NCBI GenBank assembly: GCA_003235475.1
Contig: QJWC01000028.1
Span: 1,188 to 65,187 of the forward strand
Reading direction: 5' to 3'
Length of the DNA: 64,000 nt
From: Acidimicrobiia bacterium
Lineage (GTDB): Bacteria > Actinomycetota > Acidimicrobiia > Spongiisociales > UBA5794
Part shown: positions 40,741-64,000 of the stretch, piece after piece
Layout of the letters: each line of letters starts with the position of its first letter
Position numbering within the stretch: position 1 is the stretch's first letter
Translations under genes and position numbers: made by a program
Notes under the pieces: generated by a model
Database searches by the model: none
Told to the model about the DNA's origin: nothing
Seen by the model: the letters and a program-made list of their open reading frames with translations, nothing else

Positions 40741-40966
40741 CGGAGGAGCGTAGGCGCGACAAGGCCCGACGAACCCTCACGTGGTGTCCCGCACTTCCCC
40801 GAACGAGATACTCATTGTGGTGGCACATCGGGCCTTCTCGACGTGCAAGCTACGTCTTCGGCGGTCCGTGTTCAACACGCCCGATAGCCACGGATTTCGC
40901 GCTCCGGGAACGCGGCGACTCCCCTGATGGCGGTACTTGGGGTGAGATGGCCGTCATGGAGCGCCC

Positions 40967-41007
40967 TTGTCCACATATCCACCGTTATCCACAGGAGGTT
41001 GTGCACA
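40967..41007 (+). promoter_or_regulatory. Cluster of DnaA-box-like 9-mers
   Basis: TTGTCCACA (40967-75), tATCCACcg (40976-84), TTATCCACA (40985-93) and TTGTGCACA (40999-41007). All are in the same orientation. Confidence 0.45.
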
Positions 41008-41057
41008 AAACCCTGTGCGAAAGTCGCCGGGCGAATCTTTTCGCGACCAAAACCCGG

Positions 41058-44106: not shown

Positions 44107-44110
44107 CCGC

Positions 44111-44653
44111 TTAGTTCGCCGAGAGCAGCTCGTCCGCGTCCGCGAGCCCTTCGCGATAGCGACGGGTGAGTTCACCGGTGATCACGTCGTACGCATCGTG
44201 AACCGCCCTGCGCTGTTCGGACACGGTGCGCTCGGTGTCTGCGAGGCTGTCCCTGATCCCTGCGAGCTCGTTGTCGCTGATACGGGGCAGGTGCGTGAGG
44301 AAGTCGTCACCCAAGGCTTTGTCGATCGCTCGGCGACCCTCGCCCACCCGGGGCGGCGCATCAACCGAGAGTTCCTTGTCGAGGGGGTTAGAGGTCTTCC
44401 CCGAAGGCGCATCGGCGAGGATCTCGGGGAGGGCATCGATCAGCGATCGTTCCTCCAGGCCTGCTCGCCTTCGGAGCTCGAAGTCGAGGAGGTCGAGGCG
44501 TCCGTGGAGAATGCGCCTGTAATAGGAGAGTTCGGTATCGAGGACATCGAGCAGCTCGCGGCGTGCCCGCAGTTCCTCGATCGAAAGCGTGTCGAGATCG
44601 CTCGCGAAGGAAGGGTCGAGCGCCTGATCGATGCGTCTGCGTTGGCCTGTCAT
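44111..44653 (-). CDS. RsiG-like two-helix protein (putative c-di-GMP-binding anti-sigma family)
   Basis: Two copies of [DE]xxxSxxRxxxHxxxD: DTELSYYRRILHGRLD and ERTVSEQRRAVHDAYD. They resemble the RsiG motif ExxxSxxRxxxQxxxD. Confidence 0.45.
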   Translation of the reverse strand: MTGQRRRIDQALDPSFASDLDTLSIEELRARRELLDVLDTELSYYRRILHGRLDLLDFELRRRAGLEERSLIDALPEILADAPSGKTSNPLDKELSVDAPPRVGEGRRAIDKALGDDFLTHLPRISDNELAGIRDSLADTERTVSEQRRAVHDAYDVITGELTRRYREGLADADELLSAN

Positions 44654-44678
44654 TTGGTGCTCCTCGGACGCGCACAAC

Positions 44679-48153: not shown

Positions 48154-49070
48154 GTGCCGTCCCCGAGCATGCCTGCGGCCGCGAGGGCATCGAGTGGTTC
48201 ATCGATGTCGCACGACCCGAAGGCCGTGAACCCGATGTTCCTCGACCGGCGCACCGCCGATCCTGCGAAGTGGAGATCGCGCCACGATGCGGTCGCGGCA
48301 CCCATGTGGAAGGCGGTCTCGTCGGCTTCACCCACGATCGACGCGACGGTGTCACGGTCCGCGCCCTCTCGAGCCGCAACGCCCGCGATCACGATGTTCA
48401 CGAACCCGTGCCGCCAGACACCGAGGTTGTCATCGAAGTGGCGGACGGGCTGGTGGAGGCCGGCAGTGGCCTTGAACGGCACCTGTCGGTTCGTGGCCTC
48501 GACGATGAAGTCCGTGAGCTCGTCGACCGACGGGAAGAGGTCAGGGGTGGCGCCGCCACAGCGCAGCTTCACGCCGCCTGACCGACCGCGGGCGACGAGT
48601 ACGTCCCTCACGGCGCCGATCTGCAGACCGAAGTCGACCGCGCGGTCCACCTCGACGAAGAGCGCGGCCTCGTTGTCTGCGACCGACATTGCATCGACCA
48701 GTTTCTCGACGCCGTCCGGCGACGCATCGGTGAGCTTCGCCTCGATGCCGGTCACCTTCATCGCGGGATCCATCTCACGCGCAAAGGACGAGGCGAGCAC
48801 TCCCGACTCGCCGGGCCCTCGGTCATAGATGACACCGACGGCCCACGGTTCGGACCCCTCGACAAAGGTCTGGGATGCAACCGCGGCAAGCTCCTCGAGT
48901 TGGCTCGCACGGCTGAGGAATCTGCCGACGATCCATTGCTGGTCAGACGCCTTGAGCCGCAGGTAGTCCTCGACCGCGTCCTCCACCGACAGCGATGCGG
49001 GCGGGAACACGCCGGCGTAGTCGATGAGTCCGCCGAGCGCAGCGGTGCGGGCGTCGAGGATGAGCCTCAT
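48150..49070 (-). CDS. Conserved-looking hypothetical protein embedded in the homogentisate operon
   Basis: 306 aa. ATGA overlap with the hmgA stop and GTGA overlap with the fahA start. Motifs GVKLRCGG and FKATAGLHQPVRH. No family recognised. Confidence 0.7.
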   Translation of the reverse strand: MRLILDARTAALGGLIDYAGVFPPASLSVEDAVEDYLRLKASDQQWIVGRFLSRASQLEELAAVASQTFVEGSEPWAVGVIYDRGPGESGVLASSFAREMDPAMKVTGIEAKLTDASPDGVEKLVDAMSVADNEAALFVEVDRAVDFGLQIGAVRDVLVARGRSGGVKLRCGGATPDLFPSVDELTDFIVEATNRQVPFKATAGLHQPVRHFDDNLGVWRHGFVNIVIAGVAAREGADRDTVASIVGEADETAFHMGAATASWRDLHFAGSAVRRSRNIGFTAFGSCDIDEPLDALAAAGMLGDGT

Positions 49071-50233
49071 CGGCCCTCGAGCCACGTCCAGGCGTAGCTG
49101 TCCTCTTCCGAGTCCCGCGCGCCCGGGCCGAGGTCGAGGGGGCGGAACGTGTCGATCATCACCGCAAGCTCCTCGGTCCCGGCCTTGCCGATGCTCGCCT
49201 CGACGGACCCCGGCTGTGGGCCGTGCGTGTGGCCGCCAGGGTGCAGCGAGATCGAGCCCTTCTCGATTCCTGCGCCCTTCCGAGACATGAAGTCGCCGTC
49301 CACATAGAACAGCACCTCATCCGAATCGACGTTTGCGTGGTTGTACGGGGCTGGGATCGCCTGCGGGTGGTAGTCGAAGAGCCGTGGGACGAACGAGCAC
49401 ACGACGACCCCGGGCGCCTCGAACGTCTGATGCACGGGCGGGGGCTGGTGGACACGGCCCGTGATCGGTTCGAAGTCGTGGATCGAGAACTTGTGCGGGT
49501 ACAGGCACCCGTCCCAGCCGACGACATCGAAGGGATGGTGCTCGTAGACGAACCGCGTCATGCCCCCGCGGTGCTTGACCATGACCTCGACGTCCGAGCC
49601 GTGTGCGAGGAGAGGTTCGGTGGGGCCGTGGAGGTCGCGCTCGCAGTACGGCGCGTGTTCGAGGTATTGGCCGTTGCGCGACAGGTACCGCCTCGGCGGG
49701 CCGATGTGGCCCCGTGTCTCGAGGATGAGCGCCCGGACGGGCTCGCTCGACTCGTCGAGCTCGTACCGGTGGATCACCGACGCGGGGATGATCAGGTAGT
49801 CACCGGGCTCGAACCGGATCGCGCCGAACACGGTTTCGAGCGTGCCGATTCCCTGCTCTATGTAGACCATCTCGTCACCGGTGGCGTTCTTGTAGAGACC
49901 AGAGCTGTCGGATCCGACGTAGTACGAGATCGTGCAGTCCTCGTTGCCGAGCAGCACCGCACGCGTCATGACGAGGTCGCCGCCGGCCTTGAGCTGGTGT
50001 GTGCGAAAGTGACGCGGTCGGAGTGGGTGGTTCGGCTTCGTCTCCTGGGTCTCGACGTCGACGCCCTCGATCGCCTTCAGGGCCGTTGGCGGATACCGGT
50101 GGTAGAGCAGTGCGGAATCGAACGAGAAGCCCTCCTCGCCCATGAGTTCCTCGGCGTAGAGCGAACCGTTCGGTTGCCGGAACTGGGTATGGCGCTTGGC
50201 CGGTATCTCGCCGACGGACTGGTAATACGGCAT
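49067..50233 (-). CDS. hmgA: Homogentisate 1,2-dioxygenase
   Basis: 388 aa, short bacterial form. HPFDVVGWDG, NHANVDSDEVLFY and SLHPGGHTHGP. Confidence 0.9.
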   Translation of the reverse strand: MPYYQSVGEIPAKRHTQFRQPNGSLYAEELMGEEGFSFDSALLYHRYPPTALKAIEGVDVETQETKPNHPLRPRHFRTHQLKAGGDLVMTRAVLLGNEDCTISYYVGSDSSGLYKNATGDEMVYIEQGIGTLETVFGAIRFEPGDYLIIPASVIHRYELDESSEPVRALILETRGHIGPPRRYLSRNGQYLEHAPYCERDLHGPTEPLLAHGSDVEVMVKHRGGMTRFVYEHHPFDVVGWDGCLYPHKFSIHDFEPITGRVHQPPPVHQTFEAPGVVVCSFVPRLFDYHPQAIPAPYNHANVDSDEVLFYVDGDFMSRKGAGIEKGSISLHPGGHTHGPQPGSVEASIGKAGTEELAVMIDTFRPLDLGPGARDSEEDSYAWTWLEGR

Positions 50234-50347
50234 CGAGGTCCCTTCTTGCTCGCGCCCATGGTACGGAACCCGCCACCGTTCGGGAGGGGTGGGAGCGTCG
50301 CGATCCTGCGATAATCAGGGTGAGCGAGCTCCCATGGAGGATGGCTG

Positions 50348-51463
50348 ATGGACATCGATCTCACGTTGCGTGCGAAGGAGTTTGCGTCCAAGGATCCCTT
50401 CCCGATGATGGGCTTCGGCCCGATCGAATGGTGGGTGGGCAACGCATTCATGACGGCGCAGGCGTTCCGGGCGTTGCTCGGAATGGAGATCGTCGGGTAC
50501 GCGGGCCCTGAGACGGGTGTGAGGGATCGTTCCTCGTACCTGCTCAAGAGTGATCAGATCCGGTTCATCGTCACCGGCTGTCAGGACGGAGACCACGAGA
50601 TCGCCGAACACGTCAAGCTGCACGGGCCCGGCATCAAGGATGTGGGATTCCTCGTGCCGGATGCCGTGCACGCGCACGCCATGGCGGTCGAGCGCGGTGC
50701 CGAGTCCTACCGAGAGCCTGTGAAGATCGAGAACGATCGTGGCCGGATGGTCATCGGGGCCATCAGGACGTATGGCGAGACCGTGCACTCCCTCATCGAG
50801 CTCGAAGGCGAGGATCCGCGGTTCGAGGAGCGCACCGACACGATCGCCCGCCCGACTGGCCTCCACGCCGTCGACCACGTCGTCGCCAACGTCGAGCTCG
50901 GCAAGATGAACGAGTGGGTCGGGTTCTACGAAAAGATCTTCTCGTTCACCATGTTGCGGCATTTCGACGACGAGGCGATCTCGACCGAGTACACGGCGTT
51001 GATGTCGAAGGTGATGGCAGGCGGCAACGGAATCATCAAGCTGCCGATCAACGAACCCGCAGATGGCAAGAAGAAGAGCCAGATCGAGGAGTACCTCGAC
51101 TTCTACAAGACGCCTGGCGTGCAGCACATCGCCATGTCCACCGACGACCTCCAGACGACGATCTCGGACATCCATGGCAGGGGCCTCGAGACGATCTACG
51201 TGCCGCACGAGTACTACCCGGAGGCCAAGGAGCGGCTCGCTGGTATCGACCTCGATTGGGACAACCTCGAGGCCGAGAGCATCCTCGTCGACAAGGACGA
51301 TGACGGGTATCTGCTCCAGACGTTTTCGAAGATGCTCCAGGACCGACCGACGGTGTTCTTCGAGTTTATCGAGCGCCGCGGTGCGACCGGGTTCGGCGTC
51401 GGCAACTTCAAGGCCCTGTTCGAGAGCATCGAGCGCGAGCAGGCCAAGCGCGGCAACCTCTAG
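50348..51463 (+). CDS. hppD: 4-hydroxyphenylpyruvate dioxygenase
   Basis: DHVVANVELGKM, SQIEEYLDFYKTPGVQHIA, and FFEFIERRGATGFGVGNFKALFESIE. Confidence 0.95.
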   Translation: MDIDLTLRAKEFASKDPFPMMGFGPIEWWVGNAFMTAQAFRALLGMEIVGYAGPETGVRDRSSYLLKSDQIRFIVTGCQDGDHEIAEHVKLHGPGIKDVGFLVPDAVHAHAMAVERGAESYREPVKIENDRGRMVIGAIRTYGETVHSLIELEGEDPRFEERTDTIARPTGLHAVDHVVANVELGKMNEWVGFYEKIFSFTMLRHFDDEAISTEYTALMSKVMAGGNGIIKLPINEPADGKKKSQIEEYLDFYKTPGVQHIAMSTDDLQTTISDIHGRGLETIYVPHEYYPEAKERLAGIDLDWDNLEAESILVDKDDDGYLLQTFSKMLQDRPTVFFEFIERRGATGFGVGNFKALFESIEREQAKRGNL

Positions 51464-51481: not shown

Positions 51482-52327
51482 ATGCCATCCCCGATCTCGT
51501 TCCTCTCCGACTTCGGACATGACGACGAGTTCGTGGGTGTCGTCCATGGGGTGATCGCCCGCATCGCGCCGGACGTGAAGGTGATCGACATCACCCACGG
51601 GATCAGGCGGGGCGACATCCATGGAGGGGCGCTTGCGCTGACCAGGGCGGTCCAGTTCATGCCCGATGGTGTGTTCCTCGCGGTCGTCGACCCGGGTGTG
51701 GGCACGGAACGCAGGGCGATCGCGGCGCGCTCGCCGGTCGGGTTCTTCGTGGGCCCTGACAATGGCGTCCTTGCCCCCGCGGTGGCCATGGTTGGCGGGG
51801 CCGACCTCATCGTGTCGCTCGAGGACGAACGATTCCGCCTCCCGACACCGGGCGCCACCTTCCACGGCCGCGATGTCTTCGGGCCTGCGGCCGCGGTACT
51901 CGCGTCGAACCAGGCCGATATCACGGACCTCGGTCCCGCCCTTCCACCCGATTCGATCCAACCCCTGCTCGTTCCGTTGGCGGAACCCGCAGGGAACGGA
52001 GGCATCAAGGCGACGGCGCTGTGGGTGGACACGTTCGGGAACATCCAATTCAACATCGCAGCCGAGGACCTCGAGCGTCTCGAGCTGTCAACGGGAGACG
52101 ACGTCCTGATGTCCCACAATGTGATCGAACACCGGGTGCGTTGGGGTGTGTCGTACGGATCGGTCGAGGAAGGCGAGGCGGTGTTCCACGTCGACTCCCA
52201 CGGCCAGATCGCGTTGGCGGTCCGTGGCGAGAGCGCAGCGGAAACCTTCGACATGGGCGCCGGGGACTCAGTCGTCATCGGCCGCCCTGACGGCGGCAAC
52301 ACCATCGAGATCCGCGCGGTCGGCTAG
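51482..52327 (+). CDS. SAM hydrolase / SAM-dependent halogenase family protein (DUF62)
   Basis: ISFLSDFGHDDEFVGVVHGVI, VVDPGVGTERR, FHGRDVFGP, and VDTFGN. Confidence 0.85.
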   Translation: MPSPISFLSDFGHDDEFVGVVHGVIARIAPDVKVIDITHGIRRGDIHGGALALTRAVQFMPDGVFLAVVDPGVGTERRAIAARSPVGFFVGPDNGVLAPAVAMVGGADLIVSLEDERFRLPTPGATFHGRDVFGPAAAVLASNQADITDLGPALPPDSIQPLLVPLAEPAGNGGIKATALWVDTFGNIQFNIAAEDLERLELSTGDDVLMSHNVIEHRVRWGVSYGSVEEGEAVFHVDSHGQIALAVRGESAAETFDMGAGDSVVIGRPDGGNTIEIRAVG

Positions 52328-52685: not shown

Positions 52686-53512
52686 GTCAGATCCTGGCGC
52701 TCCTCTCGGGGGCGATGTTCGGCATCGCCGACTTCTCGGGTGGTCTCGGATCGAGGCGAATGGGGGCTTATCGCTTCACCGCCTGGGCCCAGGTTCTTGC
52801 CGTTCCCGTTCTCATTGCGGGCGTCTTCCTCGTGAGAGCGGACGATGTGCGTTCGTCGGACCTCGCCTTCGGCGCCGTGGCTGGCCTGCTCGGTCTCGTG
52901 GGGTTGTTCGCGCTGTACTCGGCGCTGGCGGCTGGGACGATGTCGACGGTGGCACCCATCACCGGGGTACTCACCGTTGGGATTCCGATCGTGTGGGGCG
53001 TCACGACGGGCGACGCGATCGGAGCCCTCCAGTGGCTCGGGATCGTTGCAGCCATCGTGGGCATCCTTCTCATCGCAAGGGATCACAAGCACGCTCGGCT
53101 CACGCGAGCCGTCGCAGTCCAGGCGGTTGTCGCCTCGCTCGGTTTCGCGGGCTTCTATGTGATTCTGGATCTGGCGTCCGACGACGCCGGGTTGTGGCCG
53201 ATCGTTGCGGCGCGGTCGGTGACGATCCCGGCCGCGTTCGTCGTGGCCCTCATCGCGACCAGGTCGGTTGCGGCCCCGACGCGATCTGCGCTTCCGTACG
53301 TGGCTGCAACAGGACTCCTCGACGCGACCGCAAACTTCTTCGTGCTGCGTGCGCTCCAGACCGGGCCGATATCGATCGCGGTGGTGCTCAACGGTCTGTA
53401 TCCCGTGTTCACGACGATCGCAGCGATCATCTTCCTCCGGGAGCGCCCCACGAGGTCACAAGGGTCTGGCATCGCGCTCGCGACCGCTGCGTCGGTGTTG
53501 TTGCTGCTCTAG
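52682..53512 (+). CDS. EamA/DMT family transporter
   Basis: Ten-TM pattern. GTGA overlap with the glutaredoxin-like gene. Confidence 0.8.
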   Translation: MSQILALLSGAMFGIADFSGGLGSRRMGAYRFTAWAQVLAVPVLIAGVFLVRADDVRSSDLAFGAVAGLLGLVGLFALYSALAAGTMSTVAPITGVLTVGIPIVWGVTTGDAIGALQWLGIVAAIVGILLIARDHKHARLTRAVAVQAVVASLGFAGFYVILDLASDDAGLWPIVAARSVTIPAAFVVALIATRSVAAPTRSALPYVAATGLLDATANFFVLRALQTGPISIAVVLNGLYPVFTTIAAIIFLRERPTRSQGSGIALATAASVLLLL

Positions 53513-53524
53513 CGGTGAAGGCGA

Positions 53525-54748
53525 TCAGGATCCGATGTTGACGGTCTTCTCGATGGCCTTGTAGATGTGCTCGGACATCTTCGCTTCCTCGGGGTCGAGG
53601 AGGTTGGCCATCACCTTCAGCGTCCACTCCATGAGGGTCTTCGATCGGAGGCCGACCGTGGTGAGGGAACGCATAACGGCCGGGTTCCCGATCGCCTTCA
53701 CGAACACCCTCGCGACACGGTGGTAGTCGCCGTACGTCGCTTCGAGCTCCGCCGAATACCCGGCGAGCCCGGTCCGGTTCCCACCGAGAGCGTCCGCAAC
53801 GTGAGCTGCCGCCATCCGGCCGGTCTCGTAGGCGTAATCGATGCCCTCACCGTTGAAGGGATTCACCGCACCGGCGGCATCACCCACCAGGATCCAGTTG
53901 TTTCCCACCTTCGGGCCCACGCTCATCGACATGGGCAGCTTGCCGCCGATCGGCTTCGTGTGGACGGTCTCCTCGGTGATCTTCCAGTGCTCGGGGAGCG
54001 AGGCCGCGTATGCCTCGAGCATCTCGGAGGTATTCACGTCCTTCCACCCCTTGAACGTGGACACGAGTCCCGCCCCGACGTTGATCTCGCCGTCGCCCAG
54101 AGGAAACACCCACCCGTATCCGGGCATCGCCCTTCCCTGACGATCCCGCATGTCGAGTTGCGATTCGATGAACCGGTCGTCCGAGTTCGGGCTCTCCCAA
54201 TAGCCCCGCACCGCCAATCCGTACGGGAAGTCCTTGCGCCTCGCCGCACCGACGCCGCGGCCGAAGCGAGAGTTCGACCCGTCTGCGATGACCACGAACC
54301 TCGGGTGCACCTCGTGCCTGTCAACGCCGTCGTCGAGGACGACACCGGTGACAGTGTCCTGGTCGACGACCGGCGTTGCGGTCGTGCCCTCCGTCACGGT
54401 TGCGCCCTGCGCCGCGGCCATCGCGGCCACCGTGCCGTCGAGATCGGCGCGGCGCATCGTCGCACCCCAGTTCGGGAACTCGGAGTGGTCAGGCCACGGA
54501 AGCTCGATCTTCAGATCACCCGCATAGGCGCGAAGGCCTTCGACGCGGTGGAGGTCGAGGCCGTCGAAGTCGAACCCCATGTCGAGCAGCTGTTTGATGG
54601 CCCTCGGGGTGAGGCCGTCGCCACACGCCTTTTCCCGCGGGTACCTCTTCTTCTCGACGAGGTGGACGTCGACGCCGTTTCGCGCGAGCCAGTACGCCGT
54701 GGATGCTCCACCGGGTCCGCCGCCTACCACAAGGACATCAGATGTCAT
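53525..54748 (-). CDS. Geranylgeranyl reductase family FAD-dependent oxidoreductase (possibly an isoprenoid-quinone side-chain reductase)
   Basis: VLVVGGGPGGAS, KACGDGLTP, and LVGDAAGAVNPFNGEGI. Confidence 0.88.
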   Translation of the reverse strand: MTSDVLVVGGGPGGASTAYWLARNGVDVHLVEKKRYPREKACGDGLTPRAIKQLLDMGFDFDGLDLHRVEGLRAYAGDLKIELPWPDHSEFPNWGATMRRADLDGTVAAMAAAQGATVTEGTTATPVVDQDTVTGVVLDDGVDRHEVHPRFVVIADGSNSRFGRGVGAARRKDFPYGLAVRGYWESPNSDDRFIESQLDMRDRQGRAMPGYGWVFPLGDGEINVGAGLVSTFKGWKDVNTSEMLEAYAASLPEHWKITEETVHTKPIGGKLPMSMSVGPKVGNNWILVGDAAGAVNPFNGEGIDYAYETGRMAAAHVADALGGNRTGLAGYSAELEATYGDYHRVARVFVKAIGNPAVMRSLTTVGLRSKTLMEWTLKVMANLLDPEEAKMSEHIYKAIEKTVNIGS

Positions 54749-54786
54749 GGGGGAAGGGTACTGAGCAGCCGGAAACGGTCGACCGG

Positions 54787-56196
54787 CTACGGCGCGCTTG
54801 CCTCTGTGCTATCGGCAGCCTCGACGAGCCCGCAGTCCACCTCGGCCTCCTCGATGGACTCGCCACCGAACTGCACGCGTTCGTACAGGACCACCGCCCT
54901 CAGCTGCTCTTCGGAGAGCGAGGACCCGAAGGAAGGCATGACACCGAAGCCGCCGACGGGCTTGTTGGTCGCACCGTATGTCGCGTCTGGCCAATTGGCC
55001 GTGCCGAGGCTGACCCATTCGACGTGGTCAGCGCACGAGCCGCTCGGGAACGTTGCGAGCACCGCGCCCCCGGCGAATGCGGGGCCAGCGCCGCCACCAC
55101 CGTCTGCACCGTGGCATGCGGCGCACTGGGTGAACACGCCAGCACCCATAGCGAAGTAGTCGACGCTTGCCGCGCCGTAGCTCGAACCGTCGCAGTTGAC
55201 CGCGAGGCCGGTCGAGGGATCGACGAGCAGCTGACCGCCAGTGCCGCAGTCGGGGCCGTTCGGCGACACGAGGATGTAGATCACTGCGAGGAGGGGAATG
55301 AGCACGAAGGCGGCTGCCAGCCACGCGGGGTACCTCCCTCGCCTTGCTCCGGCCTCGTCGCCTGCTTCGCCGGTTTGTGGCTCTGCAGCGGTCGCCTCGA
55401 TGACCTCGACCTCGGCATCCGGTACCTCTTCGTCCGTCGCCGTCTCCATGGCGGGAGCCGCTGGTTCCTCGGCGGCGTCTGGGGGAGCAGGGGAGGGCGC
55501 GTCTGCGCTCACGGAGGCCACGTCGACACCGGCCCATTCGGCGAGGACGGCTTCGAGCGGCTCGCCTGTCTTCTTCGCCCGGGCCTCGGCCGAACGCTTT
55601 GCGAGCGCAGCAGGCATTCCCTTGGTCTCGGCGACCTTGTCGAGAAGTTCGTCCATCGACATCGCTCCTGCCGCCGCTGCGACGGGTGACTCCTGGGTGG
55701 GCTCCTGCACGGCAGAAGGCTCCGCAGCGGGCGCCGGTTCGAGTTCCGGTGCGGGTGCGGTCGGTGGTGCAGCCGCCGACGGCTTCGCGCGGAGATCCGC
55801 TTCGATCTCCTCGAGGGTTGACCCGGCCCAATCCGCAAGCACTTCGTCGACGGAGGACTTGGAGTTCTTGGCGCGCGCCTCGGCAGACGACAGAACGAGC
55901 TTGGGTGGCATCCGCTTCGCCTCGGCAGCAAGCTTCACCAGATAATCGGTGGTGAGCGTGGCTGGTGCGACAACGGCCTCCTCACCCACCGGCTCGGCGG
56001 CGGCCTCCGCCGCGGGGGCTGCGGACTCGGCTGGTGCGGGGCTGGATGCTGCGCTGGCATCCTCGCCAGCCCACTCCAGCAGGACCGCTTCGAGGGTCGT
56101 TCCCGTCTTCTCGGCCCGAGCCTTCGCCGATCGCTCGACGAGCGATGCGGGCATCCCCCGGATCTCAGCCACCTTCTGTAGCAGTTCGTCCATCAT
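54787..56196 (-). CDS. Membrane-anchored monoheme c-type cytochrome with three N-terminal repeat modules
   Basis: Three copies of a module of about 43 aa, Ala/Pro linkers, TM AWLAAAFVLIPLLAVIYILV, heme site CAACH and GVMPSF (Met ligand). The ATG directly follows the stop of the upstream gene. Confidence 0.8.
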   Translation of the reverse strand: MMDELLQKVAEIRGMPASLVERSAKARAEKTGTTLEAVLLEWAGEDASAASSPAPAESAAPAAEAAAEPVGEEAVVAPATLTTDYLVKLAAEAKRMPPKLVLSSAEARAKNSKSSVDEVLADWAGSTLEEIEADLRAKPSAAAPPTAPAPELEPAPAAEPSAVQEPTQESPVAAAAGAMSMDELLDKVAETKGMPAALAKRSAEARAKKTGEPLEAVLAEWAGVDVASVSADAPSPAPPDAAEEPAAPAMETATDEEVPDAEVEVIEATAAEPQTGEAGDEAGARRGRYPAWLAAAFVLIPLLAVIYILVSPNGPDCGTGGQLLVDPSTGLAVNCDGSSYGAASVDYFAMGAGVFTQCAACHGADGGGGAGPAFAGGAVLATFPSGSCADHVEWVSLGTANWPDATYGATNKPVGGFGVMPSFGSSLSEEQLRAVVLYERVQFGGESIEEAEVDCGLVEAADSTEASAP

Positions 56197-58188
56197 CTAC
56201 TCCAGCGTCTTCAGGTAGCTGACGAGGGCCTGCACCTCGTCGTCGGAAAGATACGAATACGAGGGCATCGTCGAGTACGGAACCACGATCCTCGGATCGG
56301 TCAGGTGCGCCCCCAGGATCACTACGTCGATGGCCTCCCGGCTCGCGTAGTGCATCAGGTCCGGCCCGTAACGATCCGCTCCCACGAGGGCAGGCGACTC
56401 GTGGGCATAGTCGCCGGGAACGCTGACCGGCCCGAGACCGACGTCGGTGCCCACCGGGCGAACGACCTGCGTGTGGCATTCGCCGCACCCCTCGGAGATG
56501 TAGAGGTTGCGGCCGTCGAACTCGGCAGTCCCGCTCTGGTAGATGCGGCTGGTGTCGGCGAGGATCGTCGGGTCGCGGTCCGTGTCGTCCATGGTCGGGA
56601 TCACAGCTGCGACGAGCGCCGCGAGTATCCACAGCGTGGCCACCCCGGTGATGAGGCCCTTCCACGTCAGGGATGTCGCGTCCGCTGCGAACTCGAGCTC
56701 GTACTCAGGTGGCGCCTCCGGAGCCTCGAGGGGTTCGTCGGACCGCGCGTTGATGCCGATGAGGTAGAGGATCTGAGCAGCTGCGTAGACGACGGCCGAG
56801 ATTGCGGCGATCCAGAGGAAGGGCTCAGCGGTGTCGATCGTGACCTTCCACGCGATACCCCCGTTCGCATAGGCCTGCACCGCCGGACCGGCGGCCCAGG
56901 AGAAGGCGACGGCTGTCCCGCCCGCGAGGAGGCCAACGGTCACACCGACCAGGCCAGCCAGGGACATCTTGGAGTGGAATACAGCAAGGGTGCCGCCATC
57001 CCCGGCAATCAGACGATGGCCTGCGAAGACGGAGAAGGCAATCGCCCCGAGGAGGAGAAGGACGCGGGTGCCATCGACCCACGTCGAGTACGCAATCACC
57101 GCGCTCGTCGCGCGCCAGGCGAGAAGGATCGAAGCGACAACGGCGACCGACCCTGCCATGCCCGATACGACGACGCTGCGAAGGGCTGCCCTGTTCCTGA
57201 TCGAGGCGATCCGGCCCTTGAGCATCAGTCCGAGGTCCGTGGCGATGACGAGCAACGGCACGAGGGCACCGAGCGTGATGGCCACCGAGATCGTCTCGAG
57301 CCAGTCGGGCGCCGGCGAGTAGATCTGTGCCCACCCGCTCAGGAAGAGCGACACGAGCACTGCGGACCAGAAGCCCAAGGGCCCGAGGTTGCTCGGCTCG
57401 GTCGCGTCGACCCCTGAGAGGGAGGCGACCACGAAATAGAGCACGCCGATCGTTCCGAGTACCAGGAAGGCGTGGACGGAGCCCGACGCGAACGCGGTGA
57501 GAAGTGCCCCGGGGATTCCATGCGAAACCGACACAAGCCCCACCACGCCCCCGAGTGTGAGGACGATCGGGGCGGCAACGAGGTACCAGCCGGCGGGGCC
57601 GAGCGAATCCTGCTTCGCCTTCGCGGTTCCCCTGATCGCCAACGTTGCAAGCAGGGCGCCGACGACGAGGAGCGCCCTCGCCCAGATCGGGGCTGGCAGG
57701 TCGGTGATGCCCGTGTTGAGCCCGAACACCACGCCGAGTGCGCCAGCCACTGCTCCGAGTGACAAGGTCGCGAGGGAGGCCATTGCAAAGGGGGCGCGTC
57801 GCAGCGGCGAGTCAGCGAGGCTGCCGATCGCGTGGTAGGCGAGGCCGATGAGCCCGATCGTCGCAAAGCCGTCGACGAGGAGGATCCGCGAGGCAGGGGC
57901 GATCCTTCCGTAGGTCAAGAAAGCGATCCCAGAGCCGAGATCGGGGAGGACGAGCTGGAGCGAAGCGAGGGCGGCGAGGATCCCGCCAACCACCAGAAAG
58001 GCCGCCGAGACCATGAGATGGAGACCCACGAGCTGCGGTCCCTGGTCGACGGACCCCGCACTCTGCGTGTCGTGTGATCCAGTGTCGGCTGTCACGCTCG
58101 CGGCGTCCTCCTGTGCGGCGCGGTGGTTCCGCCGCGCTCTGAAGCTGGGCAACGAGACTCTAGCCAATGACGGCTCTCCAAGGTTCAT
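56197..58188 (-). CDS. CcoN-like (ligand-deficient) polytopic domain fused to CcoO/FixO-type monoheme cytochrome c
   Basis: C-terminal GRNLYISEGCGECHTQVVRP...DRYGPDL...TMPSY aligns with recalled CcoO. The N-terminal domain keeps CcoN framework motifs, but His and Tyr ligands appear replaced (see findings). Confidence 0.75.
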   Translation of the reverse strand: MNLGEPSLARVSLPSFRARRNHRAAQEDAASVTADTGSHDTQSAGSVDQGPQLVGLHLMVSAAFLVVGGILAALASLQLVLPDLGSGIAFLTYGRIAPASRILLVDGFATIGLIGLAYHAIGSLADSPLRRAPFAMASLATLSLGAVAGALGVVFGLNTGITDLPAPIWARALLVVGALLATLAIRGTAKAKQDSLGPAGWYLVAAPIVLTLGGVVGLVSVSHGIPGALLTAFASGSVHAFLVLGTIGVLYFVVASLSGVDATEPSNLGPLGFWSAVLVSLFLSGWAQIYSPAPDWLETISVAITLGALVPLLVIATDLGLMLKGRIASIRNRAALRSVVVSGMAGSVAVVASILLAWRATSAVIAYSTWVDGTRVLLLLGAIAFSVFAGHRLIAGDGGTLAVFHSKMSLAGLVGVTVGLLAGGTAVAFSWAAGPAVQAYANGGIAWKVTIDTAEPFLWIAAISAVVYAAAQILYLIGINARSDEPLEAPEAPPEYELEFAADATSLTWKGLITGVATLWILAALVAAVIPTMDDTDRDPTILADTSRIYQSGTAEFDGRNLYISEGCGECHTQVVRPVGTDVGLGPVSVPGDYAHESPALVGADRYGPDLMHYASREAIDVVILGAHLTDPRIVVPYSTMPSYSYLSDDEVQALVSYLKTLE

Positions 58189-58283
58189 TGGGGTCGATGG
58201 CGAACCCGTGCCTCGAGAATGTCATCGTGTAACGTCCCCTGCGCCCGTGCTGTCAACGCAGATCACTCGGGCGCCGTAGACTG

Positions 58284-58892
58284 TTGCGAACTCTCCGAGG
58301 GTTGGTAGTGAACGAACGCAGACAACTCATCGCAGGAATGGGACTCCTCGTCGTTGGCATCGTCGTCGCCATCCTCGGCGCCGTCATGGCGCACATGGCA
58401 GAGGCCCCCGATGTCGATCAGTTCGGACGCGCCATGTTCTCCGGATTTCCAAGGGGCTGGATCGTCGCAACGCTTGCCCAATCGATGTCGCTCGGTGGCG
58501 TGATGGTTGCGATGGGTGGCCTCGCATTTGGCCTCATTTGGAAGCGGAAGCTGACCTGGGCGCGGGCGATGCTCGGCGCACTGCTGTTCACGGGGTTGAT
58601 GTTCATCATCTTCGCGATCGTCCCGAACCAGATGCTCACGATCTTCCAGGCGACCCTCGAGTGGACGCCGCAGAAGATCTTCGTCACGATCCCGCCATGG
58701 CTGATCCTCGGTCAGGACATCTCCATTTCCTATGCCACGCTCAAGGACATGATCGTGGCCGGCTTCCTCACGACGATGCTGCTTGTGGTCCCGATCGCGA
58801 TGTACCAGATCCAGGAGCGGGCGAAACGGGCAGACGTCCCGAAGCCGCAGCCCGTGTCCACGTATGGTCGACCGATGCGGGTGCCCGACTGA
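58284..58892 (+). CDS. Polytopic membrane protein, first gene of the Rieske/cyt b operon (hypothetical)
   Basis: 4-5 TM helices. TGATG coupling to the ferredoxin gene. Start uncertain: TTG 58284, GTG 58308 or ATG 58338. Confidence 0.6.
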   Translation: MRTLRGLVVNERRQLIAGMGLLVVGIVVAILGAVMAHMAEAPDVDQFGRAMFSGFPRGWIVATLAQSMSLGGVMVAMGGLAFGLIWKRKLTWARAMLGALLFTGLMFIIFAIVPNQMLTIFQATLEWTPQKIFVTIPPWLILGQDISISYATLKDMIVAGFLTTMLLVVPIAMYQIQERAKRADVPKPQPVSTYGRPMRVPD

Positions 58893-59332
58893 TGGCAAAG
58901 GAAGTCTGGCTCGAGACCCCGCCGATTCGCGATGACTACCAGCTCGCGATGGTCGATACCGCGTACCTGACCGCCGCAGTCAAGCCCAAGCAGTTCATCC
59001 ACATCAACGAGTCCGAATGCATCCTGTGCGCAGGGTGCGTCGACATCTGCCCGTGGAAGTGCATCCACTTCCTCACGCCCGACATCGTCACCGAGACGTT
59101 CGGCGTCGAGAACCCCGCGGACAAGGAAGAGAACGGGGCCCTCTTCCTGATCGACGATACGGAGTGCACGAGGTGCAAACTGTGCGTCGATCGGTGCCCG
59201 ACCAACGTCATCACCATCGGCAAGTTCGCGGGTTCGGTTGCGGAGCAGACCGAGTACGCGGAAGCGCCGTGGGAGTTGGACACGGGTGAACGTGACCACA
59301 AGAACGGATACAGCTACGGCATGCGCTGGTAG
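58892..59332 (+). CDS. 4Fe-4S dicluster ferredoxin-domain protein
   Basis: CILCAGCVDICP and CTRCKLCVDRCP. Confidence 0.85.
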   Translation: MAKEVWLETPPIRDDYQLAMVDTAYLTAAVKPKQFIHINESECILCAGCVDICPWKCIHFLTPDIVTETFGVENPADKEENGALFLIDDTECTRCKLCVDRCPTNVITIGKFAGSVAEQTEYAEAPWELDTGERDHKNGYSYGMRW

Positions 59333-59348
59333 CTCGGAGTGAAGAACT

Positions 59349-60122
59349 GTGGCTGACAGAGGACGAACGAGTCTCAAGGAGCGGGTGAGCGGGCTGGGCG
59401 ACCACGTCCGCAACTCCCAGGTCTGGACATCGATCTTCAGGCCTGGCTCGGCGCTGCGCGCCGACAGCGGTGACTCCCCGAGGAACCGTGCCTATGTCGT
59501 GATGAACAATGTGCTCTACCACCTCCACCCCGTGAAGGTGAAGCGGCGTGGGATCAAGGTCTCCTACACGTTGTGCCTCGGCGGGTTGAGCTTCTTCCTG
59601 TTCATCCTGCTCACTGTGACCGGCATCTTCCTGATGTTCTACTACCGGCCGACGTCGCCGCAGGCCTACTTCGATATGCAGGCACTTGCGACCGACGTGG
59701 CATTCGGGCAACTGGTGCGCAACATGCACCGATGGGGCGCTCACGTGATGGTGCTGACGGTCTTCCTGCACATGACTCGGGTCTTCTACCACGGCGCCTA
59801 CAAGCCGCCGCGCGAGTTCAACTGGGTCGTCGGCATCATCCTCCTGTTGCTCACGCTGCTGCTCTCGTTCACCGGCTACCTGCTCCCGTGGGACCAGCTC
59901 GCGTTGTGGGCGGTGACGGTGGGCTCGAACATGGGCGGCTACGTGCCGGTGTTCGGGCGACAAGTGTCGTTCGCGCTCGTCGGCGGTGTCCAGATCACCG
60001 CGGACACGTTGTTGCGGTTCTACGTGCTCCATGTTCTCTTCCTGCCGTTCATCATCGTCATCTTCATGGCCGTCCACTTCTGGCGGGTCCGTAAAGACGG
60101 CGGAATATCGGGACCGCTCTAA
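59349..60122 (+). CDS. Cytochrome b, N-terminal (b6-type, four-helix) subunit
   Basis: [24 protein letters not shown] and [25 protein letters not shown] supply four heme His. [10 protein letters not shown] also present. Confidence 0.9.
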
Positions 60123-60131
60123 GGAGAATGC

Positions 60132-61010
60132 ATGGCAGACCTTCCTGAACATCTCCTCAAGAGAGCCGCTGAGGCCCGTGCGAAAGCCGAGGGCGTGCCC
60201 GTCGAGCAGGTTCTCGCTGAAATGAAGGGTGAGGCACCCGCGGCTGCGGCGCCGGCGGCTGCAGCACCTGCCGCGGCCGCTTCGCAAGGCGCTGGACGAG
60301 ACCTCGATGCGGATTCCGCGAAGTTCGGCGTGCCGCGTCCGCTTCTCGAAAGGGCGATGCTCGCGAGGGCAAGGCGCGACGGTACGCCGGTTCCCCAACT
60401 CGTCGGCGCGGGCGCTCCGGCCGCCGCAGCGGCCCCCGCTGCGAGCGCGGCACCAGCCGCCGCTCCGAAGGCGGCGTCCGCTGGTCCGCCCCCGGGCGTT
60501 CGGACGCAGCGACTCCTCACCGTCGTCAAGGCAAACGCGATTCAGGGGACGACGAGGGAGCCACAGGACAAGGTCAACGTGTGGCCCCACCTGCTCGCAA
60601 TCGAGTTCGTCGCCCTCATCTCAATGCTCGCCTTCCTGACCCTGCTGTCGGCCCTGGTCGACGCGCCGCTTCTCGAGTTCGCAAACTTCAACCAGCAGCC
60701 GAACCCCTCGAAAGCGCCGTGGTACTTCCTGGGCCTCCAGGAGATGCTCGCCTACTTCGACCCCATGCTCGCCGGCGTGCTGATCCCAGGGTTCGGGCTC
60801 GCGGCGCTCGCGTTCATCCCGTATGTCGACAGAAACCCGTCGGTGCGCCCCTCCGACCGGAAGCTCGCCATCTCGCTCTACACGGTGTTCTTCGTCGGTG
60901 CTTCGATCCTCACCATCTTCGGTTCGTTCTTCAGGGGACCGGGGTTCAACTTCACGTTCCCGTGGCGTGACGGCATCTTCTTCGACGACTTATTGACGAT
61001 CCTCGAATGA
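60132..61010 (+). CDS. Cytochrome b C-terminal (subunit IV-like) protein with N-terminal repeat/linker extension
   Basis: About 125 aa of extension with two repeat modules and poly-Ala/Pro. Three TM helices follow, with the Qo-region motif KAPWYFLGLQEML. AAGGAG precedes the ATG. Confidence 0.85.
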   Translation: MADLPEHLLKRAAEARAKAEGVPVEQVLAEMKGEAPAAAAPAAAAPAAAASQGAGRDLDADSAKFGVPRPLLERAMLARARRDGTPVPQLVGAGAPAAAAAPAASAAPAAAPKAASAGPPPGVRTQRLLTVVKANAIQGTTREPQDKVNVWPHLLAIEFVALISMLAFLTLLSALVDAPLLEFANFNQQPNPSKAPWYFLGLQEMLAYFDPMLAGVLIPGFGLAALAFIPYVDRNPSVRPSDRKLAISLYTVFFVGASILTIFGSFFRGPGFNFTFPWRDGIFFDDLLTILE

Positions 61011-61852
61011 GCGGCGCAGCACTTTTCGGCATCATCCTCGTGGTCTCCACCGTCGTGGCGGCGGGAGCGATCATCGCGATCGCGTCGCGCCGCAGCGACA
61101 GCGAGGGATCTGTCACGAGCGCGGAGCTCGACCGGAAGGCAGCCAAGGCCGATCGCGATCGTCGCAAGGCGATGGCAGCGGCAGCACCGGCGGACGCGCC
61201 GCCGGCGAAGCTGGTTCCCGCCCCTATCGAGTTCGAGGACGACGCTCCGAGGCAGGAAGTCACGGCATCCGAGTTCGGCGTCACCCGGCGGAAGTTCTTC
61301 AACCGCGCGGTCGGGGCGATCTTCGGCTTGTACCTGCTCCAGTTCGCGCTCGCGGGCCTGGCGTTCTTCTGGCCGAAGCTCAAGGGCGGATTCGGCACGC
61401 CGATCAGCGCAGGTGCGCTCGACGCTCTCAAGGCCGAGGTGGTCGACGGCGCCCGGTTGGTACCCAAGTTCATCCCGGCAGCCCAGTCATGGGTCGTTCC
61501 CTTCCCGATGAGCAGCTTGCCGGGATCGTCGTTCGAGGCGACGCCGTTCGTCGTCGCGGGGGGTGAGTCGGACGGCATCGGGCTCATGGCTCTCTGGCAG
61601 CGATGCGTTCACCTCGGGTGCCGCGTCCCCTCGTGCGAGTCGTCCCAGGGCTTCGAATGCCCGTGCCACGGCTCGAAGTACAACGGCCACGGCGAATACT
61701 CTGCTGGTCCCGCGCCCCGCAACCTCGACCGGTTCGCGGTGAGCGTGGACGCGGCGGGCGAGTTCATCATCGAGACGGGCACCGTGGTCCAGACTGCTCG
61801 TGCGAAGCACTACACGATCGCGTATCCCCAAGGGCCGTTCTGTGTGGGGTGA
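61007..61852 (+). CDS. Rieske 2Fe-2S subunit
   Basis: CVHLGC...CPCHGSKY. Also TRRKFFN (twin-Arg-like) and N-terminal TM helices. ATGA overlap with the upstream gene. Confidence 0.9.
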   Translation: MSGAALFGIILVVSTVVAAGAIIAIASRRSDSEGSVTSAELDRKAAKADRDRRKAMAAAAPADAPPAKLVPAPIEFEDDAPRQEVTASEFGVTRRKFFNRAVGAIFGLYLLQFALAGLAFFWPKLKGGFGTPISAGALDALKAEVVDGARLVPKFIPAAQSWVVPFPMSSLPGSSFEATPFVVAGGESDGIGLMALWQRCVHLGCRVPSCESSQGFECPCHGSKYNGHGEYSAGPAPRNLDRFAVSVDAAGEFIIETGTVVQTARAKHYTIAYPQGPFCVG

Positions 61853-61858
61853 CCGATC

Positions 61859-63490
61859 GTGATGCTTGATTTCATCCTCGCAACCGCGGAGGAGACAGAG
61901 GTCGTCGACTCGAAGGCGGGCCTCGGCGTCGGCGCGTGGGCGCTGATCATCGTGGTCGCCGTGATCCTCTTGTGGATGGCGTACCTCTACATCAACTCCC
62001 GGCAGTCACGATCCGCCGCGGCGGAGGCAGCACCACCGAACCTTTCGCCAGGGGCATCAGACGACGAACTCGAGAACAAGAGGCTCACGGCCGTTCTCCG
62101 TGCGGCACTGTTCGGGTCGGCTCTGCTCGCTATCTCGCTTCCGTGGTATGCCTTCAACGAACCGGACCGCCAGGTCGAGGCCGCGTCAGAGATCCTCGCC
62201 GCCGACGTGGAGGCTGGAGCCCACTATTTCAGCCGTGAGGGCTTCCAGTGTGCGAACTGCCACGGACCTTCGGGCGGGGGCGGCGGGGCCGCCTTCGAAG
62301 AGCCGCGATCGAAGGTCAACACGACATGGACCGCCCCTTCCCTCGATGACATCTTCTTCCGGTACGCCGACGATGAAGTCCGCTACTGGATCGAGTACGG
62401 CAGGGCTGGCACCCCGATGCCCGCGTGGGGTCTCGTCGGTGGCGGTGCAATGACCGGGCAGGAGATAGACCAGACGATGGCGTACATCAGGTCCATCCAG
62501 GTCGACCAGGCAACTGCGTTCGGACGCTCCGAAAGTGCAGCAGCACTGGCGCTCGCGCGGATGGCGAACGGTACGGTGACGACGCAGAGCCTCATCAACA
62601 AGCAGACCGCTGCGATCGCCGACGTGAACGCCGCACCGGACAAGATCGCTGTCGTCGGTGGATACCCCGATGAGGTCGCCGATCTCCTCCAAGGCCCCGG
62701 AACCTGCACCGACGCCTCCGCCGCGCTCGTCAACGCCACCTGTTCGTCGCCGGGGCAGGACCTCGACCGTGACGGTCTGGCCGACGCCGCGGAGGTGCGG
62801 CTCACCGACATCGCAACGTCGGCGATGGAAACCATCACGGTGACCGTGGAGAACGTGCCGCCAGCGCAACCGGGGCAACCGCCGCTGCCCAACATGTACG
62901 TGCCCGGGCCGAACACCGCGTACGACCTCAGCTTCGACCCATTCGCCGCGTTCACGAACTCGAATCCGGACACCAGGGCTCCCGAGCCAGACCTCGACGC
63001 AGCAGACACGCTCCTGAACCTCCTTCGCAACGACGTGCTCGTCATCAATGTCACCGCTGAGCGGGGGGACGACTTCCTCGCCAAGCTCAGGCCGGGGCTC
63101 GAGTTCCTCCAGACCGCACTCGAGGAGCAGCCGTGGATGGTGGATACCGCTGCCGCCGCGGACTACATGGGCGTGTCCGTGGAGGACGCCACGATGGCTG
63201 TCGGACTGTTCAATGCCTATTGCGCCAGGTGTCACACGGGTGGCTACAGCGCAGGACCGTCGTTCGAGCGTGGCGCGGGATCGGGCGCCTGGGGCCCGTC
63301 GTTGCGAAACGGCCGTGCCGTGACGCAGTTCCCGGACATGGCTGATCAGGTCAAGTTCGTCATCTCCGGCTCTGAGAACGCCAAGGGCTACGGCACCAAT
63401 GGCATCGGCACCGGCCGCATGCCGAGCTTCGGGGCCCTGCTGTCGGAGCGCCAGATCGAACTCATCGTCGCCTACACGAGGGGGCTGTGA
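61859..63490 (+). CDS. Diheme c-type cytochrome with a large inter-domain insertion
   Basis: Two TM helices. Heme sites CANCH (aa 131) and CARCH (aa 455), each followed by a Met-ligand region (TPMPAW, GRMPSF). About 225 aa lie between the two domains. Confidence 0.85.
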   Translation: MMLDFILATAEETEVVDSKAGLGVGAWALIIVVAVILLWMAYLYINSRQSRSAAAEAAPPNLSPGASDDELENKRLTAVLRAALFGSALLAISLPWYAFNEPDRQVEAASEILAADVEAGAHYFSREGFQCANCHGPSGGGGGAAFEEPRSKVNTTWTAPSLDDIFFRYADDEVRYWIEYGRAGTPMPAWGLVGGGAMTGQEIDQTMAYIRSIQVDQATAFGRSESAAALALARMANGTVTTQSLINKQTAAIADVNAAPDKIAVVGGYPDEVADLLQGPGTCTDASAALVNATCSSPGQDLDRDGLADAAEVRLTDIATSAMETITVTVENVPPAQPGQPPLPNMYVPGPNTAYDLSFDPFAAFTNSNPDTRAPEPDLDAADTLLNLLRNDVLVINVTAERGDDFLAKLRPGLEFLQTALEEQPWMVDTAAAADYMGVSVEDATMAVGLFNAYCARCHTGGYSAGPSFERGAGSGAWGPSLRNGRAVTQFPDMADQVKFVISGSENAKGYGTNGIGTGRMPSFGALLSERQIELIVAYTRGL

Positions 63491-63999
63491 TGCGAACTCC
63501 GAAGGTTCTTCTGATGACTGCTGCAAAGGACGAGCGGGGTCTCTCGAAGCTGGAGTCGCTCGGGCTCATACTGTTCGTCCTCTCGATCCTCGCGATGATC
63601 GGCCCCATCAGGGATCTCGCCGTCAACCTGATCGGGACGGTGTTCAATCAGGTCGACCCTGACACCGGGCACCCGAACGACTTCTCGAAGGCGATGCGTG
63701 GCTTCGCGATCGCTGGTGGTGCGGTCCTGGTTTTTGTCGGGTCGGGCTACCTCGTCATGTGGACCGATCTCGGCAAGCGTCTCGCGTTCCTGCTCATCGG
63801 GGCAGCGACCTCCGGGTACCTCGTCATCAACGGCCTCTTCTTCATCGTGTATGCACCGCGTGGGGTGAGGCCGCCAAACCTCGAGGGTCTCGACGCCATC
63901 CAGATGCGGCTCCCTGCGATCGCGCTCACGCTCGGTTCCCTGTTGATCTTCCTGATGTTCTCGGTCGCCCTCGCGCGGTACGAAGCCGAAGCCGAATAG
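63487..63999 (+). CDS. Polytopic membrane protein, last gene of the Rieske/cyt b operon (hypothetical)
   Basis: Four TM helices. 4-nt overlap with the cytochrome c stop. Stop at 63997-63999. Confidence 0.6.
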   Translation: MMRTPKVLLMTAAKDERGLSKLESLGLILFVLSILAMIGPIRDLAVNLIGTVFNQVDPDTGHPNDFSKAMRGFAIAGGAVLVFVGSGYLVMWTDLGKRLAFLLIGAATSGYLVINGLFFIVYAPRGVRPPNLEGLDAIQMRLPAIALTLGSLLIFLMFSVALARYEAEAE

Positions 64000-64000
64000 C

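Follow-up and report, generated by a model that had tools for sequence, protein, structure and literature searches.

At its right-hand end, between positions 53525 and 63999, the 64,000-nt stretch of contig QJWC01000028.1 analysed here (the window), which comes from an Acidimicrobiia bacterium, carries a divergent respiratory locus of ten genes. The plus-strand unit is an operon for a complex III of the b6 type (b6c operon). The minus-strand unit encodes a fusion of homologues of the cbb3 oxidase subunits CcoN and CcoO (CcoNO), a membrane-anchored monoheme cytochrome c and an enzyme of the geranylgeranyl-reductase family (Table 1). The CcoN-like domain has lost its cofactor ligands, is under purifying selection and stands beside complex III in a layout that is conserved in many uncultured Acidimicrobiia.

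An earlier note, made from the sequence alone, had described the same ten genes, and all of them were recovered with the boundaries and domains it had given. Its count of four c-type hemes on three proteins agrees with four CxxCH motifs on three proteins, and the 38-nt gap ahead of the reductase gene is correct. The 95-nt divergent region that it placed between the units holds when the longest open reading frames (ORFs) are used, but not with the JGI gene calls on the same DNA, which put the starts of both spacer-flanking genes further in and give about 212 nt. Since most orthologues are conserved upstream of V32, the long CcoNO start is favoured. The seven genes of the plus-strand unit are tightly joined, with overlaps of 1–4 nt or gaps of at most 16 nt; the stop codon of memA overlaps the ATG of the ferredoxin gene by 1 nt. 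On the other strand, the monoheme cytochrome c gene abuts the CcoNO gene directly. For the products of memA and memB, no credible Pfam match (E up to 10) and no significant NCBIfam match were found.

Table 1. Features of the divergent respiratory locus in the window (FAD, flavin adenine dinucleotide)
Feature	Position	Strand	Basis
FAD geranylgeranyl-reductase family enzyme, 407 residues	53525-54748	minus	TIGR02032
Anchored monoheme cytochrome c, 469 residues, three 43-residue repeats	54787-56196	minus	Pfam Cytochrom_C 30 bits
Cytochrome c repeats, three copies	56065-56193, 55822-55950, 55528-55656	minus	repeat alignment
CcoN-CcoO fusion, 663 residues	56197-58188	minus	Pfam COX1 62.7 + FixO 78.9 bits
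CcoN-like domain, residues about 50-480 of the fusion	56749..58041	minus	COX1 62.7 bits
CcoO-like monoheme domain at the C-terminus of the fusion	56200..56676	minus	FixO 78.9 bits
Divergent intergenic region, 95 nt to about 212 nt by start choice	58189..58283		
memA, four-helix membrane protein, first b6c operon gene	58284-58892	plus	hydropathy
2x[4Fe-4S] ferredoxin-like protein, 146 residues	58892-59332	plus	Fer4-family matches
Cytochrome b6	59349-60122	plus	Pfam Cytochrome_B 165.8 bits
Subunit IV	60132-61010	plus	Pfam Cytochrom_B_C 33.6 bits
Subunit IV repeats, two N-terminal copies	60132-60230, 60306-60416	plus	repeat alignment
Rieske [2Fe-2S] protein	61007-61852	plus	Pfam Rieske 35.4 bits
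Diheme cytochrome c (CANCH, CARCH), membrane-anchored	61859-63490	plus	Pfam Cytochrome_CBB3 63 bits, two stretches
memB, four-helix membrane protein, last operon gene	63487-63999	plus	hydropathy

A CcoN-like domain without cofactor ligands

A profile built from 21 orthologues of the CcoN-like domain matched Pseudomonas stutzeri CcoN (3mk7_A) over its whole length with an E value of 3.8e-24. The AlphaFold model of the CcoN-like protein (predicted local distance difference test score (pLDDT) of 80.4, predicted template modelling score of 0.86) has the 12-helix fold of heme-copper oxidase subunit I, and among solved structures Foldseek ranked the CcoN chains of cbb3 oxidases highest (target-normalised TM scores 0.82–0.85). 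The ligand positions were examined in a hidden Markov model (HMM) alignment of 73 full-length fused orthologues, at the six His positions that are invariant in cbb3 oxidases: H60 and H347 for heme b, H345 for heme b3, and H207, H257 and H258 for CuB. No orthologue had His at H60, H207, H258, H345 or H347, and a single one had it at H257. The position of the cross-link tyrosine, Y251, was occupied by Trp in 69 sequences, by Gly in three and by Ser in one. The six His ligands were likewise missing from ten unfused CcoN-like relatives, and one marine orthologue contained a single His among 468 residues.

The ligand deficiency that the earlier note had read from one sequence therefore held up in a proper alignment, where no ligand was restored, and it is a trait of the family rather than a sequencing artefact. 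Because the six His residues and the cross-link Tyr are lost, the CcoN-like protein is almost certainly incapable of reducing O2 or NO, judging from its sequence. This supports the proposal of an oxidase-shaped scaffold unable to reduce O2, as no residues are left to bind heme b, heme b3 or CuB. Over the whole set of pseudo-CcoN proteins, distant relatives included, only Gly, Trp, Phe and Leu residues were invariant, and so no substitute axial ligand is conserved. At the same time, the ratio of nonsynonymous to synonymous substitution rates in 12 closely related pairs was 0.07–0.27 for the CcoN-like domain and 0.05–0.25 for the CcoO-like domain, which means that the CcoN-like gene is under purifying selection and is not decaying. 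The CcoN-like protein probably serves as a scaffold for cytochrome c.

Outside this family, two unfused CcoN-like proteins (P0076 and P0078) also have most of the ligands gone; in one alignment P0078 retains only the equivalent of H60. Ligand-poor CcoN homologues may thus occur in other lineages.

The CcoO-like domain of the fusion contains a transmembrane helix, a CGECH motif at residues 568–572 and the Met of an MPSY motif at residue 641. It aligns with CcoO of P. stutzeri (3mk7_B, E 5.3e-16), including the CxxCH and Met regions, and among 69 sequences C568, C571 and H572 were invariant and M641 nearly so. The monoheme cytochrome c encoded next has one transmembrane helix (residues 293–311), a CAACH motif at residues 358–362 and Pro/Ala-rich linkers, and its orthologue follows CcoNO in 75 of 82 loci. 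This protein is not the diheme CcoP, given its one CxxCH motif and a score of 23.6 bits against the ccoP model TIGR00782 (cutoff 179.95).

The minus-strand unit thus resembles CcoNOP of cbb3 oxidases in its 12-helix fold, in the CcoO-type monoheme domain with CxxCH and Met, and in the gene order, where N and O are followed by another c-type cytochrome. A fusion of N and O is also known among genuine oxidases (PRK14485), although the fused CcoNO scores only 114 bits against the PRK14485 cutoff of 1080. Unlike in cbb3 oxidases, neither the six His ligands nor the cross-link Tyr are present here, the third gene encodes a monoheme protein with a novel cytoplasmic repeat instead of diheme CcoP, and the unit is always divergently paired with a b6c operon.

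The conserved module, its complex III and the shared repeat

A pattern scan that covered a single genome of each GTDB species yielded 111 relatives, and the best 80 of them were nearly all labelled as Acidimicrobiia or as metagenome-assembled genomes of Actinomycetota. Synteny was assessed by tblastn with the ten proteins of the window, and flanks of at least 6.5 kb upstream and 5 kb downstream were regarded as adequate. Among the 46 Acidimicrobiia loci with such flanks, 38 had all ten genes, four were without the ferredoxin gene only and four without a nearby reductase gene only; gene order was colinear in 45. The two divergent units, which the earlier note had treated together, are therefore co-conserved far beyond chance (38/46 complete) and form one conserved module. 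The memB gene was present in every adequately flanked locus and memA in 74 of 82 loci, each time beside the ferredoxin or the b6 gene. Identity across loci was 79–93% for cytochrome b6 and 31–50% for CcoNO. Some loci have additional genes between the two units (Rrf2-like, sigma-factor-like and others), which provided no useful information.

The same divergent layout was found in distant metagenomic lineages, where separate genes encode the CcoO-like protein and the CcoN-like protein (467–518 residues, lacking the six His), and the layout is retained down to 24–29% identity of the CcoN-like protein. One of these separate-gene lineages is a low-GC marine one that is very abundant in the TARA and GOS data.

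It should be noted that the 2x[4Fe-4S] gene is missing from a subclade of six loci (L044, L045, L050, L056, L057 and L070; about 8.2–9.3 kb in each), which still has memA, b6 with the LCLGG motif, subunit IV with the APWY motif, and the repeats. Since this subclade keeps the remaining parts, the Fe-S subunit is dispensable for the rest of the module.

Cytochrome b6 of the window aligned end-to-end with the cyanobacterial b6 (1vf5_A, E 1.5e-48), including the four His ligands and Cys35 of the heme cn/ci site. The predicted heme-ci motif reads LCLGG here, and CxGG was found in 68 of the 69 b6 sequences examined; the Qo motif was APWY in all 64 subunit IV orthologues. The Rieske protein has two transmembrane segments, a TRRKFF twin-arginine motif and the cluster-binding motifs CVHLGC (residues 200–205) and CPCH (218–221). 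In the diheme cytochrome c, the heme domains are separated by an insert of roughly 250 residues, in which a Cys pair and the possibly calcium-binding motif D.DRDGL.D..E are conserved.

On these sequence features (split cytochrome b, APWY, CxGG, four bis-His ligands and a Rieske protein in the cluster), the complex III is assigned to the APWY clade and has the heme-ci cysteine. Kao & Hunte (2014, PMC4122944) defined this clade by its split cytochrome b and CxGG motif, found it in several phyla and listed among its members the Acidimicrobiia strain Ilumatobacter coccineum YM16-304; they noted no characterised member, speculated on reverse operation and mentioned neither a pseudo-cbb3 neighbour nor the repeat. 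The complex of the window shares the split cytochrome b and the APWY and CxGG motifs with the clade, but it has LCLGG instead of the clade-typical WCMGG, and its partners are a diheme cytochrome c, a 2x[4Fe-4S] protein and two membrane proteins of unknown family.

Cytochrome b6 also scored above the cutoff of the NCBIfam model ExtP (305.8 bits versus 290), whereas ExtQ remained below it (56.8 versus 150). We ascribe the ExtP match to kinship within the APWY clade only; the clade includes ExtO/P/Q of Geobacter. Other components of the Geobacter Ext context (porin, rhodanese, multiheme ExtH-N and ExtS; cluster composition according to PMC5877670) were found neither in the window nor in the related loci, and the functional label "selenite/tellurite" attached to the ExtP model was rejected, because the remaining Ext cluster is absent. 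The models for the actinobacterial Qcr complex all gave scores below their cutoffs (QcrB 112.6 versus 500, QcrA 25.2 versus 275 and QcrC 18.1 versus 200 bits). Like the b6c complex of Firmicutes and heliobacteria and the cyanobacterial b6f complex, the complex of the window combines b6 and subunit IV with the cysteine for a covalent heme ci/cn. The heliobacterial b6c complex has a diheme cytochrome c, as here. The differences are the APWY motif in place of PDWY or PEWY, the extra Fe-S and membrane subunits and the repeats on subunit IV.

The 2x[4Fe-4S] protein contains two CxxCxxCxxxCP motifs (residues 42–53 and 91–102). As it has neither a signal peptide nor a transmembrane helix, it presumably lies on the cytoplasmic side. 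Its nearest solved relatives are the polyferredoxin FwdF and NuoI, and its identity across loci is 57–94%. A search for homologues returned close relatives only (at least 63% identity) and no further genomic context.

A further link between the units, absent from the earlier note, is a 43-residue repeat that is shared by subunit IV and the monoheme cytochrome c and constitutes the strongest tie between them. In the cytochrome of the window, all copies lie within the first 223 residues. When all ORFs of the window and of 84 loci were searched with an HMM, the repeat was found in every locus (1–5 copies each), always including subunit IV, and in no proteins other than these two; in the separate-gene lineages the CcoO-like protein bears one copy as well. 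Only 421 matches at E up to 1e-3 came from an exhaustive profile search that covered 1.84 billion representatives. Among the best 150 of them, the full-length proteins with a recognisable partner domain were versions of the present cytochrome c (26), subunits IV (16) and stand-alone CcoO-like proteins (4).

The repeat was modelled as a three-helix bundle (pLDDT 94.9). No credible Pfam match was found at E up to 10, and Foldseek gave no PDB match to the model at E <1. A weak resemblance to the cyclic di-GMP-binding MshEN/PilF domain was not significant, and this candidate was dropped. Based on hydropathy and flanking charges, all copies are predicted to be cytoplasmic: in the cytochromes they precede the single helix, and the heme domain is on the outer side. 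For subunit IV, b6f topology places the N-terminus on the n-side. The repeat is retained in the loci without ferredoxin, which shows that ferredoxin is not its obligate partner. Of all the findings, this common repeat most strongly indicates that the c-cytochromes of the minus-strand unit either bind the b6c complex or have a binding partner in common with it.

The reductase, the spacer and the genomic surroundings

The reductase scored 239.9 bits against TIGR02032 (cutoff 158.8) and 290.3 bits against the MenJ model NF045655 (cutoff 700). It shares the FAD-binding geranylgeranyl-reductase fold with MenJ and aligns over nearly the full length of that model, but it remains under the equivalog cutoff. 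In most loci the gene lies immediately downstream of the cytochrome c gene, and in some it is displaced or absent. Cultured Acidimicrobiia have MK-9(H6/H8) (PMC12263773). The family assigned by the earlier note is thus borne out, and its suggestion that the enzyme saturates the quinone tail is plausible in a class with such menaquinones. Judging from its family, the enzyme probably makes the class-typical MK-9(H6/H8) by reducing the menaquinone side chain.

No sigma-70 consensus promoter was found within 53300–64000. A canonical Rex operator (TTGTGAAN4TTCACAA, two mismatches or fewer) was found in none of the divergent spacers of 85 loci, with two matches elsewhere. On the b6c strand, about 40 of 71 spacers contained a −10-like word TA(C/G)(A/G)AT, for example CGTACAATG or CATAGAATG; the spacer of the window has GAGAAT at about 58216–58221.

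Past memB, on the same DNA beyond position 64000 (L085, 1–4056), there is a gene for a Rex-type regulator (Put_DNA-bind_N and CoA_binding domains), followed on the opposite strand by nuoA-E of the complex I operon. The same was observed in two related loci. In the locus L043 (14395–17516), the reductase gene is followed by genes for an Rrf2 regulator, COX2 (CuA motif CAELCGVGHAAM) and, at 441 bits, a genuine COX1, the last two a few kilobases downstream. In the window itself, terminal oxidase genes were found neither among 29 further ORFs scanned (1–52.7 kb) nor by a search of the whole window with oxidase-motif regular expressions.

On the other side of the locus lies a homogentisate cluster (46912–51463) with genes for an HPPD-like protein (50348–51463), a homogentisate dioxygenase-like protein (49067–50233) and fumarylacetoacetase (46912–48153). 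The presence of the O2-dependent HPPD and homogentisate dioxygenase in the window implies an aerobic lifestyle. Between this cluster and the reductase gene, a SAM hydroxide adenosyltransferase (SAM_HAT_N/C) is encoded on the plus strand (51482–52327). Its gene stays within a few kilobases of the respiratory locus in other genomes (L001, 16247–17092; L003, 15261–16133; L166, 15296–16102), and it is near even in the distant low-GC marine lineage, which has lost the adjacency of the reductase and nuo genes.

Elsewhere in the window, a very long class II B12-dependent ribonucleotide reductase of 1206 residues with a TSCPD domain is encoded at 30449–34069 (minus strand), and a bacterial CLP1_P P-loop protein, whose domain is typical of polynucleotide kinases of the eukaryotic/archaeal type, at 39322–40209 (plus strand). 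No tRNA or Rfam matches were obtained in the window. Four stretches (8851–10815, 35114–37444, 40740–42287 and 43414–44679) contained neither an ORF passing the GC3 filter nor a tRNA or Rfam match.

Functional interpretation and significance

Based on the above results, we suggest with moderate confidence that the locus encodes a respiratory b6c complex that runs in the forward direction and is tethered to a non-catalytic, cbb3-derived cytochrome-c relay. The plus-strand operon would encode a b6-type menaquinol:cytochrome c oxidoreductase, the main complex III of the host. The pseudo-CcoN would be kept as a membrane scaffold needed by CcoO and as a docking surface, and the cytoplasmic repeats on subunit IV and the c-cytochromes would hold the two units together. 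Electrons would pass from menaquinol to the b6c complex, then to the diheme cytochrome c and the two extra anchored c hemes, and finally to a genuine terminal oxidase encoded elsewhere, while the neighbouring reductase would tailor the menaquinone tail. The circumstantial case for a forward chain is that complex I adjoins the locus, O2-dependent enzymes are encoded in the window, COX2 and COX1 follow the reductase in L043, and cultured relatives are oxidase-positive.

Precedents exist in the PDB for bc1-cbb3 supercomplexes (8smr, 6xkw and 9g83). The proposed assembly would resemble those of P. aeruginosa (8smr) and Rhodobacter capsulatus (6xkw), as well as the actinobacterial QcrCAB-CtaCDEF, in combining complex III with an oxidase-shaped partner and anchored c hemes, and in using a diheme cytochrome c in place of a soluble carrier. 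It differs from them in that the oxidase-shaped partner is dead here and that the association is one we infer. Neither a ligand-free CcoN nor its obligate pairing with a b6c operon nor the repeat domain was found described in the literature. The superfamilies of the parts and the cytochrome b clade were already known.

Several observations weigh against the tethered forward relay. In cbb3 oxidases the heme of CcoO hands electrons to CcoN, and the pseudo-CcoN offers no heme b. Contact between the units is deduced indirectly, and a third partner may instead be what the repeat binds. Of the ten proteins, CcoNO evolves fastest (median identity 37%, versus 85% for b6). A real heme-copper (A-type) oxidase was found in the flank of only one locus of about 165, namely L043. 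Furthermore, the Fe-S subunit is not accounted for by a simple forward model, and reverse operation has been proposed for the APWY clade (Kao & Hunte 2014, PMC4122944).

The last two points lead to the model of the earlier note, an unknown acceptor or a reverse or bifurcating mode, in which the high-potential c hemes would supply electrons or heme ci would pass them on to the 2x[4Fe-4S] subunit, so that the quinone pool would be linked to ferredoxin- or NAD(P)-level carriers. Such a mode would suit a cytoplasmic Fe-S subunit that is co-encoded and highly conserved, the retained heme-ci cysteine of b6, which faces the cytoplasm, and the motif APWY, present in 64/64 sequences and tied to reverse operation by Kao & Hunte (PMC4122944). 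However, the reverse mode of the clade is itself a speculation, the locus has no gene for a flavoprotein or an NAD(P)-binding partner, and the subclade without ferredoxin keeps everything else. We found no direct evidence for this mode: the adjacent Rex regulator and complex I, the dioxygenases in the window and the genuine A-type oxidase after the locus in L043 all speak for a conventional chain, and apparently no second Rieske/cytochrome b locus was seen in these contigs. It is simpler to assume an ordinary forward chain that ends in a separate oxidase, and we consider the reverse or bifurcating model rather unlikely.

It is also conceivable, though on balance unlikely, that the two units are merely co-regulated neighbours that form no complex. 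The CcoO-like and monoheme cytochromes would then be general anchored carriers, a monoderm equivalent of soluble cytochrome c serving several reductases and oxidases, and the repeat would be a localisation or regulatory tag. This would agree with the long, low-complexity linkers, with a repeat copy number that ranges from 1 to 7, and with those loci in which unrelated genes stand between the units and neither unit is lost. On the other hand, the restriction of the repeat to subunit IV and these cytochromes in all lineages is hard to explain without a common partner, and the divergent layout survives to 24–29% identity of the CcoN-like protein. A new activity of the CcoN-like domain, such as a cofactor bound through non-His residues, a channel for protons or ions, or a module that binds quinones or lipids, appears improbable to us. 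Purifying selection on it is as strong as on the CcoO-like domain, and the fused subfamily has conserved Trp, Arg, Glu and Asp positions and a near-invariant His405; but neither His405 nor these polar positions are conserved among the unfused and marine relatives, no Met, Cys, Lys or Tyr is conserved as a possible axial ligand, and the marine orthologue mentioned above has but one His in its entire length.

A bolder form of the tethered relay would be an obligate, Acidimicrobiia-wide b6c/pseudo-cbb3 supercomplex held together on the cytoplasmic side by multivalent three-helix "velcro" repeats on subunit IV and each anchored c-cytochrome, with the 2x[4Fe-4S] protein docking at heme ci as a cytoplasmic electron port. 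We regard this as quite unlikely, and the electron port taken together with the reverse or bifurcating idea as similarly doubtful. If true, a supercomplex held by repeats would represent a new principle of respiratory supercomplex assembly, and the port could support ferredoxin:menaquinone reduction or electron bifurcation, which have long been debated for b6f-type complexes.

The 43-residue repeat is a new domain with an unusually specific distribution, and the module offers an entry point to the uncharacterised b6c complexes of the APWY/heme-ci type and to the role of their Fe-S subunit on the cytoplasmic side. The pseudo-CcoN would be a clean natural case of an enzyme turned scaffold, as every cofactor ligand is lost, purifying selection is kept and the protein always stands beside complex III. 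Finally, JGI and NCBI label these proteins as "cbb3-type cytochrome c oxidase subunit I/II", and metagenome studies take ccoN as a marker of high-affinity O2 respiration (e.g., PMC11279179). In this widespread class, including abundant marine lineages, an inference of O2 respiration based on ccoN would be wrong, and metabolic reconstructions would be misled.

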